Assembly (NCBI RefSeq): GCF_003334355.1
Contig: NZ_QOWP01000075.1
Origin: Escherichia coli
GTDB taxonomy: Bacteria > Pseudomonadota > Gammaproteobacteria > Enterobacterales > Enterobacteriaceae
Reading direction: 5' to 3' (one strand)
DNA: 2,485 nt
A model generated the notes under the pieces. It did no database searches. It was not told the DNA's origin and was given only the letters and a program-made list of their open reading frames with translations. The translations under genes were made by a program, and so were the position numbers. Below, piece by piece: positions 1 through 2,485 of this stretch; position 1 is the stretch's first letter; each line of letters opens with the position of its first letter.

Positions 1-141
1 TCACTGGATAACATGGTTGCCCAGGGCAATGTTCTGCCTGTTCTGTACGGGGAAATGCGCGTGGGGTCACGCGTGGTTTCTCAGGAGATCAGCACGGCAG
101 ACGAAGGGGACGGTGGTCAGGTTGTGGTGATTGGTCGCTGA
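1..141 (+). CDS. I: Phage tail assembly protein I, C-terminal 46 codons (5' end lies outside the window)
   Basis: Frame 1 is open from position 1 to the TGA at 139..141 and translates to SLDNMVAQGNVLPVLYGEMRVGSRVVSQEISTADEGDGGQVVVIGR*. I recognise this as the C-terminus of lambda gpI. It sits immediately upstream of J with a 60-nt spacer, as in the lambda tail operon. Absent from the ORF track because it has no start codon in the window. Confidence 0.85.
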   Translation, partial: SLDNMVAQGNVLPVLYGEMRVGSRVVSQEISTADEGDGGQVVVIGR

Positions 142-159
142 TGCAAAATGTTTTATGTG

Positions 160-187
160 AAACCGCCTGCGGGCGGTTTTGTCATTT
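160..187 (+). terminator. Intergenic GC-rich hairpin followed by a T-rich tract, between I and J; terminator-like or RNA-stability element, function unproven
   Basis: Seen directly: AAACCGCC (160..167), loop TGCG (168..171), GGCGGTTT (172..179) form a perfect 8-bp inverted repeat with 5 G:C pairs, followed by TTTTGTCATTT. It lies 13 nt after the I stop codon and about 15 nt before the J ribosome-binding site. Stem-loop plus U-tract is the architecture of an intrinsic terminator, but the T-run is interrupted and the late operon is normally read through under Q antitermination. Confidence 0.35.
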
Positions 188-189
188 AT

Positions 190-193
190 GGAG
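190..193 (+). promoter_or_regulatory. Shine-Dalgarno-like GGAG for J
   Basis: GGAG at 190..193 lies 8 nt upstream of the J ATG at 202. A second purine-rich stretch, GAGGA (197..201), abuts the ATG but is too close to be an optimal SD. An in-frame TGA at 196..198 rules out any longer N-terminal extension of J. Confidence 0.55.
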
Positions 194-201
194 CGTGAGG
201 A

Positions 202-2485
202 ATGGGTAAAGGAAGCAGTAAGGGGCATACCCCGCGCGAAGCGAAGGACAACCTGAAGTCCACGCAGTTGCTGAGTGTGATCGATGCCATCAGCGAAGGG
301 CCGGTTGAAGGTCCGGTGGATGGATTAAAAAGCGTGCTGCTGAACAGTACGCCGGTGCTGGACACTGAGGGGAATACCAACATCTCCGGTGTCACGGTGG
401 TGTTCCGTGCCGGTGAGCAGGAGCAGACACCGCCGGAGGGGTTTGAATCCTCCGGCTCCGAGACGGTGCTGGGTACGGAAGTGAAATATGACACGCCGAT
501 CACCCGCACCATTACGTCTGCAAACATCGACCGTCTGCGCTTTACCTTCGGCGTGCAGGCACTGGTGGAAACCACCTCAAAGGGGGACCGGAATCCGTCG
601 GAAGTCCGCCTGCTGGTTCAGATCCAGCGTAATGGTGGCTGGGTGACGGAAAAAGACATCACCATTAAGGGCAAAACCACCTCGCAGTATCTGGCCTCGG
701 TGGTGGTGGGTAACCTGCCGCCGCGCCCGTTCAATATACGGATGCGCAGGATGACGCCGGACAGCACCACAGACCAGCTGCAGAACAAAACGCTCTGGTC
801 GTCATACACCGAAATCATCGATGTGAAACAGTGCTACCCGAACACGGCACTGGTCGGCGTGCAGGTGGATTCGGAGCAGTTCGGCAGCCAGCAGGTGAGC
901 CGTAATTATCATCTGCGCGGGCGCATTCTGCAGGTGCCGTCGAACTATAACCCGCAGACGCGGCAATACAGCGGTATCTGGGACGGAACGTTTAAGCCAG
1001 CATACAGCAACAACATGGCCTGGTGTCTGTGGGATATGCTGACCCATCCGCGCTACGGCATGGGGAAACGTCTTGGTGCGGCGGATGTGGACAAATGGGC
1101 GCTGTATGTCATCGGCCAGCATTGCGATCAGTCGGTGCCGGACGGTTTTGGCGGCACGGAGCCGCGCATCACCTGTAATGCGTACCTGACCACACAGCGT
1201 AAGGCGTGGGATGTGCTCAGTGATTTCTGCTCTGCGATGCGCTGTATGCCGGTATGGAACGGGCAGACGCTGACGTTCGTGCAGGACCGACCGTCGGATA
1301 AGGTGTGGACCTATAACCGCAGTAATGTGATGATGCCGGATGATGGTGCGCCGTTCCGCTACAGCTTCAGCGCCCTGAAGGACCGCCATAATGCCGTTGA
1401 GGTGAACTGGATTGACCCGAATAACGGCTGGGAGACGGCGACAGAGCTTGTGGAGGACACGCAGGCCATTGCCCGTTACGGTCGTAACGTCACGAAGATG
1501 GATGCTTTTGGCTGTACCAGCCGGGGGCAGGCACACCGCGCCGGGCTGTGGCTGATTAAAACAGAACTGCTGGAAACGCAGACCGTGGACTTCAGCGTGG
1601 GTGCGGAAGGGCTTCGCCATGTACCGGGCGATGTCATTGAAATCTGCGATGATGACTATGCCGGTATCCGCACCGGCGGGCGCGTGCTGGCGGTAAACAG
1701 CCAGACCCGGACGCTGACGCTCGACCGTGAAATCACGCTGCCATCTTCCGGCACCACGCTGATAAGCCTGGTTGACGGGCAGGGGAGTCCGGTCAGCGTG
1801 GAGGTTCAGTCCGTCACCGACGGCGTGAAGGTGAAAGTGAGCCGTGTTCCTGACGGCGTTGCTGAATACAGCGTATGGGGGCTGAAGCTGCCGACGTTGC
1901 GCCAGCGCCTGTTCCGCTGCGTGAGTATCCGTGAGAACGACGACGGCACGTATGCCATCACCGCCGTGCAGCATGTACCGGAAAAAGAGGCCATCGTGGA
2001 TAACGGGGCGCACTTTGACGGCGACCAGAGCGGCACGGTAAATGGTGTCACGCCGCCAGCGGTGCAGCACCTGACCGCAGAAGTCACCGCAGACAGCGGG
2101 GAGTATCAGGTGCTGGCCCGCTGGGACACGCCGAAGGTGGTGAAGGGCGTGAGCTTCCTGCTTCGCCTGACCGTGGCAGCGGATGACGGCCGTGAGCGGC
2201 TGGTCAGCACGGCCCGGACGACGGAAACCACTTACCGCTTCACACAACTGGCTCTGGGGAACTACAGGCTGACAGTCCGGGCAGTAAATGCGTGGGGGCA
2301 GCAGGGCGATCCGGCGTCGGTATCGTTCCGGATTGCCGCACCGGCAGCGCCGTCGCGGATTGAGCTGACGCCGGGCTATTTTCAGATAACCGCCACGCCG
2401 CATCTTGCGGTTTATGACCCGACGGTACAGTTTGAGTTCTGGTTCTCGGAAAAACGGATTGCGGATATCAGGCAGGTTGAAACCA
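202..2485 (+). CDS. J: Phage tail tip / host-specificity protein J (central tail fibre), N-terminal ~761 codons; 3' end lies outside the window
   Basis: ATG at 202 is preceded by an in-frame stop at 196..198 and a GGAG at 190..193. Frame 1 is then open for 2284 nt to the window edge, with a third-position G/C bias typical of coding sequence. The translation begins [34 protein letters not shown]..., which I recognise as lambda gpJ. Gene order I then J with a 60-nt spacer matches the lambda tail operon. Absent from the ORF track only because there is no stop codon in the window. Confidence 0.95.
2050..2340 (+). other. Fibronectin type III-like beta-sandwich module within J (about aa 617..713)
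   Basis: Translated segment [28 protein letters not shown]...[34 protein letters not shown] shows FN3 hallmarks: a Pro-rich start, a conserved Trp in the predicted B strand, and the tyrosine-corner-like pattern NYxLxVxAxNxxGxxxxPS. A second module with the same opening pattern ([17 protein letters not shown]...FEFWFS) starts near 2341 and runs off the window. Confidence 0.55.

Follow-up and report, generated by a model that had tools for sequence, protein, structure and literature searches.

The 2,485-nucleotide stretch of DNA from contig NZ_QOWP01000075.1 analysed here (the window, at its full length) raises two questions: from what kind of element it derives, and whether anything lies hidden in it. 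An earlier note, made from the sequence without database searches, had recognised the C-terminus of the tail protein gpI and the N-terminal two-thirds of the tip protein gpJ of phage lambda, with the gene order I-J and the 60-nucleotide spacer of that phage. The translations and the alignment to lambda bear this out, the spacer being identical at 60 of 60 positions. The window derives from the late (tail) operon of a siphophage of the lambda type, almost certainly one residing as a prophage in Escherichia coli or a close relative. It covers the spacer between genes I and J, flanked by the 3' end of the former and codons 1-761 of the latter. It is an already known and ordinary lambdoid tail-tip segment. 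The earlier description could be refined in that the window carries a prophage allele rather than lambda itself, that it ends in the middle of the second fibronectin type III domain (FNIII-2) of gpJ, and that the spacer contains a terminator-like hairpin.

A megablast search against 50,697 phage records aligned the whole window to positions 15304..17788 of lambda (J02459.1) in a single ungapped match with 100% coverage and E=0; as the E-values are all 0, a chance match is not at issue. Gene I is annotated at 14773..15444 and gene J at 15505..18903 of J02459, so that I ends and J starts exactly at window bases 141 and 202. The coordinates given in the earlier note (I ending at 15444, J at 15505..18903, the window at about 15304..17788) match this record exactly. 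The alignment proposed there was made base by base and gave 91 differences over the 2485 bases (96.3% identity), while gpJ residues 1-761 differ from lambda gpJ at 14 of 761 positions (98.2% identity); both comparisons are gap-free. The lambda order is H-M-L-K-I-J-lom. The window holds I and then J on the same strand, and the full order is found in lambda and in the relatives that are 99.6-99.8% identical to the window. The assignment had been made dependent on a gpJ identity not below 70% and on J following I, and both the identity given above and the observed order are in agreement with it. Nothing contradicting a lambdoid I-J identity was found.

The 3' end of gene I occupies bases 1..141 of the plus strand, on which the spacer and gene J with all the features described for them are also found. 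Frame 1 encodes 46 residues, SLDNMVAQGNVLPVLYGEMRVGSRVVSQEISTADEGDGGQVVVIGR, followed by a TGA stop at 139-141. These correspond to residues 178-223 of lambda gpI, to which they are identical at 46 of 46 positions, and the stop codon is the same. The fragment matches PHROG 4554 ('tail protein', E 5e-25) and PHROG 32 ('tail assembly protein'); on its own it gave no NCBIfam match, as expected for a piece of only 46 amino acids. Compared with the complete lambda gpI (J02459 14773..15444) the window thus holds only the C-terminal fifth, while the N-terminal domain, the hydrophobic helices and the plug (159-175) are outside. In the lambda structures gpI residues 135-223 form a trimeric tripod and plug in the lumen of the tube, where the plug at 159-175 is followed by β-strands running through openings of the gpJ hub (PMC10721106; PMC11101478). 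It is these C-terminal strands that are encoded at window bases 1-138.

Gene J, encoding the tip attachment or central tail fibre protein, is found at 202..2485. The ATG at 202 opens 761 codons, out of about 1132-1165, with no stop up to base 2484, and the frame is open past the window end. The sequence GGAG at 190..193, 8 nucleotides before the start codon, is likely to be the Shine-Dalgarno sequence as judged by eye, and a ribosome_binding_site is annotated somewhere within the matched region of the lambda imm21 and imm434 records. The product matches the lambda gpJ chains 8iyk_J and 9e7m in PDB with E=0 over residues 1-761, PHROG 31 ('central tail fiber J'), and the NCBIfam model NF049904 (lambda_TipJ), the latter with 1698 bits over model positions 1-760 of 1163. 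This score is below the whole-protein cut-off of 1950 bits because one third of gpJ is outside the window.

The Pfam domains of J come in the same order as in lambda, namely FNIII-A_GpJ, Phage-tail_3, Ig_J, and Ig_J_second. FNIII-A is found at 457..822 (PF24801, residues 86-207, E 5e-41); in the lambda structure this domain comprises gpJ residues 72-215 and lies inside the insertion of hub domain HDII (PMC10721106). The hub core, in the HDIII/HDIV region as named in the structural studies (PMC10721106; PMC11101478), corresponds to 1189..1695 (PF13550, residues 330-498, E 4e-43), and the β-sandwich (OB) insertion in HDIV, residues 483-569 according to published boundaries (PMC10721106), to 1648..1908. 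It is followed by FNIII-1 at 2029..2343 (PF24421, residues 610-714, E 4e-41) and by the first half of FNIII-2 at 2347..2484 (PF24489, residues 716-761, model positions 2-47 of 105, E 6e-13), which is cut by the window end. In lambda gpJ the 483-569 insertion is followed by a linker, FNIII-1, FNIII-2, a helical shaft, a straight fibre and the receptor-binding domain (PMC10721106; PMC11101478). The domain boundaries therefore define the window as the hub and fibronectin-type part of J, ending within FNIII-2, and the helical shaft, the central straight fibre and the C-terminal receptor-binding domain are beyond residue 761. That the hub and FNIII parts are covered and the receptor-binding end is outside had been proposed earlier, and Pfam, NCBIfam, PHROGs and PDB all agree. 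Lambda gpJ (J02459 15505..18903; PDB 8IYK, 8IYL, 8K35, 8XCG, 8XCI, 9E7M) shares the domain order, the position of the start codon and the upstream spacer with the window.

A mechanism can be proposed from the solved lambda structures, to which the encoded parts are 98-100% identical in sequence (PMC10721106; PMC11101478). Three gpJ chains would form the lower hub of the tail tip, each contributing HDII, the HDII-insertion with FNIII-A, HDIII, and HDIV with its β-sandwich insertion. This hub would prolong the tail tube below gpM and gpL, with a cone of FNIII-1 and FNIII-2 sealing the tube. By threading the gaps of the gpJ hub, the gpI C-terminal strands would keep the plug of gpI anchored, and the plug in turn would retain the tape-measure protein gpH and the DNA. 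In lambda it is the C-terminal coiled coil of gpH that the plug restrains (PMC10721106). Receptor binding by the C-terminal part of gpJ, encoded outside the window, would then cause the FNIII strings to dissociate, the hub domains to rotate outward and the gpI plug to drop, so that the tube opens. In lambda, binding to LamB makes the helical shaft flip and the FNIII strings come apart; the hub rotates outward and the plug falls, leaving a channel of ~3 nm (PMC11101478).

The hub scaffold is shared with more distant proteins. The baseplate hub protein pb3 of T5 has the scaffold of four hub domains and two FNIII domains in common with gpJ, and gpL and gpI, along with gpJ's N-terminal part, jointly correspond to pb3 (PMC10721106). 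The plug, a separate protein in the lambda type, is built into pb3 as one of its domains in T5, and the sequences are distant. The tail fibre protein of the F2-pyocin likewise shares this scaffold of hub and FNIII domains and is distant in sequence; neither of the two is a candidate source of the window. It could still be argued that the J-like gene belongs to a phage-tail-like bacteriocin, an F-type pyocin-like particle, as F2-pyocin tail-fibre chains match the gpJ hub at E 5e-126 and the fold is common to tailocins. This is very improbable, however, given that the F2-pyocin chain scores 425 bits, where the lambda gpJ chains reach about 1725, and that genuine lambdoid phages and prophages carrying head genes are 96-99.8% identical to the window. 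Every close relative examined has head and packaging genes upstream.

The closest phage record is Escherichia phage phiSTEC1575-Stx2k (genes 77-78), which is 99.6% identical to the window with 11 base differences and three differing gpJ residues. Among complete E. coli genomes the closest match is a prophage of EM18-18-42 (99.8%, five base differences, one residue, V377M). Both have the same layout of I, 60-nucleotide spacer and J over the whole window. These relatives also bear on whether the window could be phage lambda itself, present for instance as a laboratory or cloning-vector contamination. The first 303 bases are indeed identical to lambda and the alignment has no gaps, but the 91 base and 14 amino-acid differences from J02459 make such an origin practically out of the question, and the laboratory derivatives of lambda are all 96.4% identical to the window compared with 99.6-99.8% for the natural prophages.

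The 14 substitutions relative to lambda gpJ are I35V, M169V, Y307H, T368V, V377M, S490R, A519T, S527Q, N529S, E560G, E608D, T659A, S664R and Q752R. Altogether 87 codons differ between the window and lambda, 73 of them synonymously and 14 nonsynonymously, with a ratio of nonsynonymous to synonymous substitution rates (dN/dS) of 0.066, and third codon positions hold 73 of the 91 base differences. By this pattern the allele looks like an ordinary natural variant under strong purifying selection. V377M is the only amino-acid change private to the window among eight comparators. The substitutions are not evenly spread, since the HDIV β-sandwich insertion, with 87 of the residues (483-569), holds five of the 14 (Fisher p = 0.015), and six base changes within the nine bases 1779-1787 lead to S527Q and N529S. 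This insertion is probably a tolerant decoration domain. Bases 1-303 have no differences from lambda, while bases 304-2485 diverge by 4.2%; at that rate the chance of finding 303 unchanged bases is ~2e-6. PhiR30_1 is identical over the first 500 bases and then ~4% different, and in ev207 the differences are mostly found within the first 750 bases. Such shifting breakpoints have the appearance of ordinary lambdoid mosaic (patchwork) recombination inside I-J.

The late operon of the EM18-18-42 prophage has the lambda order of terminase, portal and head genes, Z-U-V-G-T-H-M-L-K-I-J, lom and stf. This prophage adjoins appY/ompT, which is a DLP12-type locus, and its portal gene is frameshifted and its tail-fibre assembly gene has an internal stop, so it is probably defective. 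The state of the closest chromosomal relative leads to the question of whether the window too, intact as its module is, derives from a defective (cryptic) prophage that makes no particles, with I and J as relics. The module is common: 4613 of 5426 complete E. coli genomes have matches, the median copy number is three per genome, and many prophages of this kind have decayed. A relative is further encoded in 589 candidate IMG/VR stretches. Against decay stand the 761 open codons of J, the low dN/dS relative to lambda and the single private change, V377M, while a window of 2.5 kb is too short to show the state of the remaining prophage. A cryptic origin is therefore considered possible, but unlikely.

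In the closest relatives J encodes 1165 amino acids; it departs from lambda after about residue 820, downstream of the window, and is nearly the same as in lambda before that. The shaft of this longer J is diverged and has 33 additional residues, and the C-terminal receptor-binding region is diverged from that of lambda as well. Judged from these relatives, the source phage may use a receptor other than LamB.

Three limits apply to the identification of the window as a lambda-type tail-tip segment of a prophage. As it contains neither the start of gene I nor the last third of J, only partial genes and no receptor specificity can be read from it. The collections searched contain no record that is 100% identical. 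Assembly and function of this particular allele are, finally, presumed from those of lambda.

As to whether the window hides anything, the second-longest open reading frame (ORF) is found on the minus strand at 802..2403 and has 533 codons. Its length speaks for a second gene on the opposite strand, but the frame meets stops in lambda (codon 424) and in phage Ayreon (codon 370), and its dN/dS relative to lambda is 2.0. That value arises because the silent third-position changes of J fall on the first codon positions of the antisense frame, and a long open antisense frame is expected since it is the codon-complementary frame of a gene with 73% G+C at third codon positions. That the antisense ORF is a gene is exceedingly improbable, and it was rejected. 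On the plus strand no ORF of more than 65 codons is found besides J. Neither product of the window has a PADLOC match at E <= 0.01, Rfam gave no match in the window at E <= 1, and the searches of the window for tRNA and tmRNA genes and for promoter-like sites were empty. The earlier view that no cargo, defence system or undescribed gene is present thus holds. A weak terminator site listed by the standard scan at 22-36, inside gene I, was not credited. The repeat search found only short two-copy direct and inverted matches in the window; the 19-nucleotide inverted repeat 2056-2074/2106-2124, with 17 of 19 positions complementary (15 of 19 in lambda), is taken as chance in coding sequence. The I-J region belongs to the most thoroughly studied phage DNA, and its two products have been solved at atomic level in the closed as well as the open state. 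What is useful here is a negative outcome: an ordinary tail-tip segment without hidden gene, RNA or defence cargo.

The hairpin in the I-J spacer is the only element of the window that is not already described in detail. The spacer comprises the 60 nucleotides 142..201 and is identical to lambda 15445-15504; the same string is found in phiSTEC1575-Stx2k. The terminator-like hairpin at 160..187 consists of the arm AAACCGCC (160-167), the loop TGCG (168-171), the arm GGCGGTTT (172-179) and the T-rich tail TGTCATTT (180-187). The stem has 8 Watson-Crick pairs, five of which are G-C, closing a loop of 4 nucleotides. Counting the last Ts of the stem, the tail is TTTTGTCATTT, so that the U tract is interrupted. 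The spacer folds with -21 kcal/mol (z = -2.8 compared with shuffled sequences). The standard terminator scan of the window did not list the spacer hairpin, which is likely explained by a G-T extension of the stem that uses up the T tail. A 'terminator' is annotated at the equivalent site in the record of phage Ayreon.

The stem is retained in 80 close relatives taken from IMG/VR, with variation in the loop (TGCG, TCCG, TGCT, CCCCC, TTTTG) and in both flanks. In one variant both arms are changed with the pairing kept, AAACCGCC/GGCGGTTT being replaced by AGCCGCC/GGCGGCT, and in another an A-to-G change in the stem retains a G-U pair. GC-rich hairpins with a T run, unrelated in sequence, are also found directly upstream of J in six divergent J-encoding lineages: two of Stx type (one of them CP-1639), Klebsiella phage KLB29, mEp237, an Enterobacter Ravinvirus and the T1-like SRT8. 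The hairpins are located at 1810-1850 in L004, ~1810-1850 in L005, 856-880 in L091, ~829-855 in L092, ~828-852 in L093 and ~795-820 in L094. A compensatory pair distinguishes the two versions of Stx type.

That such a hairpin is special to the I-J junction was nevertheless rejected. An ad hoc scan of lambda 1-23000 found the I-J hairpin among six matches, and the D-E, E-FI, I-J and lom-stf gaps of lambda each have a clear GC hairpin with a T run, that of the J-lom gap being weaker. The feature is therefore general to the operon and not specific for J. During late transcription in lambda the Q-modified polymerase reads through terminators. In the simplest reading the hairpin would be one of several intra-operon terminator-like hairpins that are passed by the Q-modified polymerase, its terminator activity being putative. 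A more tentative proposal, which may well be wrong, is that the hairpin has been selected, in many J-encoding siphophages that are not related, as an insulator or attenuator immediately upstream of J, and that it marks a recurrent insertion point for accessory genes. As an insulator it would block polymerases that are not antiterminated from entering J and the lysogen-expressed genes beyond. The insertion-point part of the proposal is made because in some relatives a lipoprotein insert occupies precisely the place between the I stop codon and the hairpin; the window is the empty version of this site. The literature searched describes no I-J terminator and no lipoprotein moron at this junction, but older lambda literature is mostly outside its coverage and this is not proof of absence.

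The conserved position of the pre-J hairpin and the uncharacterised lipoprotein gene may merit separate attention; neither concerns the window itself. The insert has a GC content of 36% and is found between the I stop and the pre-J hairpin in 338 of the 5426 complete E. coli genomes (~6%) and in 8 of the 80 IMG/VR relatives. In one relative (L014) it spans 724-1201, with an ORF at 796-1134 that encodes a predicted lipoprotein of 112 amino acids, beginning MNKTILFCTIIALTGC and having the lipobox LTGC. It is annotated only as hypothetical, and it matches PHROG 914, a family of unknown function. No informative match was found in Pfam, NCBIfam, PADLOC or PDB sequences, and megablast gave no match in deposited phage records. 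The insert looks like a moron, and a role of the lipoprotein in superinfection exclusion at the cell surface is a guess.

Stx-converting phages, the J proteins of which are ~79% identical, have an I-J spacer of 235-240 nucleotides compared with 60 in the window (1648-1882 in L004, 1645-1884 in L005). An origin of the 235-nucleotide spacer as a remnant of the lipoprotein insert was rejected, as there is no significant sequence similarity. The long spacer has no convincing ORF, but two strong hairpins.

One of the matching phage records is unexpected with respect to its host. MW057783.1, deposited as 'Campylobacter phage CJLB-4' with Campylobacter jejuni as host, is over positions 15224-17708 of the record 96.4% identical to the window, as lambda is. 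Going by the matched stretch only, this record may essentially be phage lambda, present as a contamination or mislabelled.

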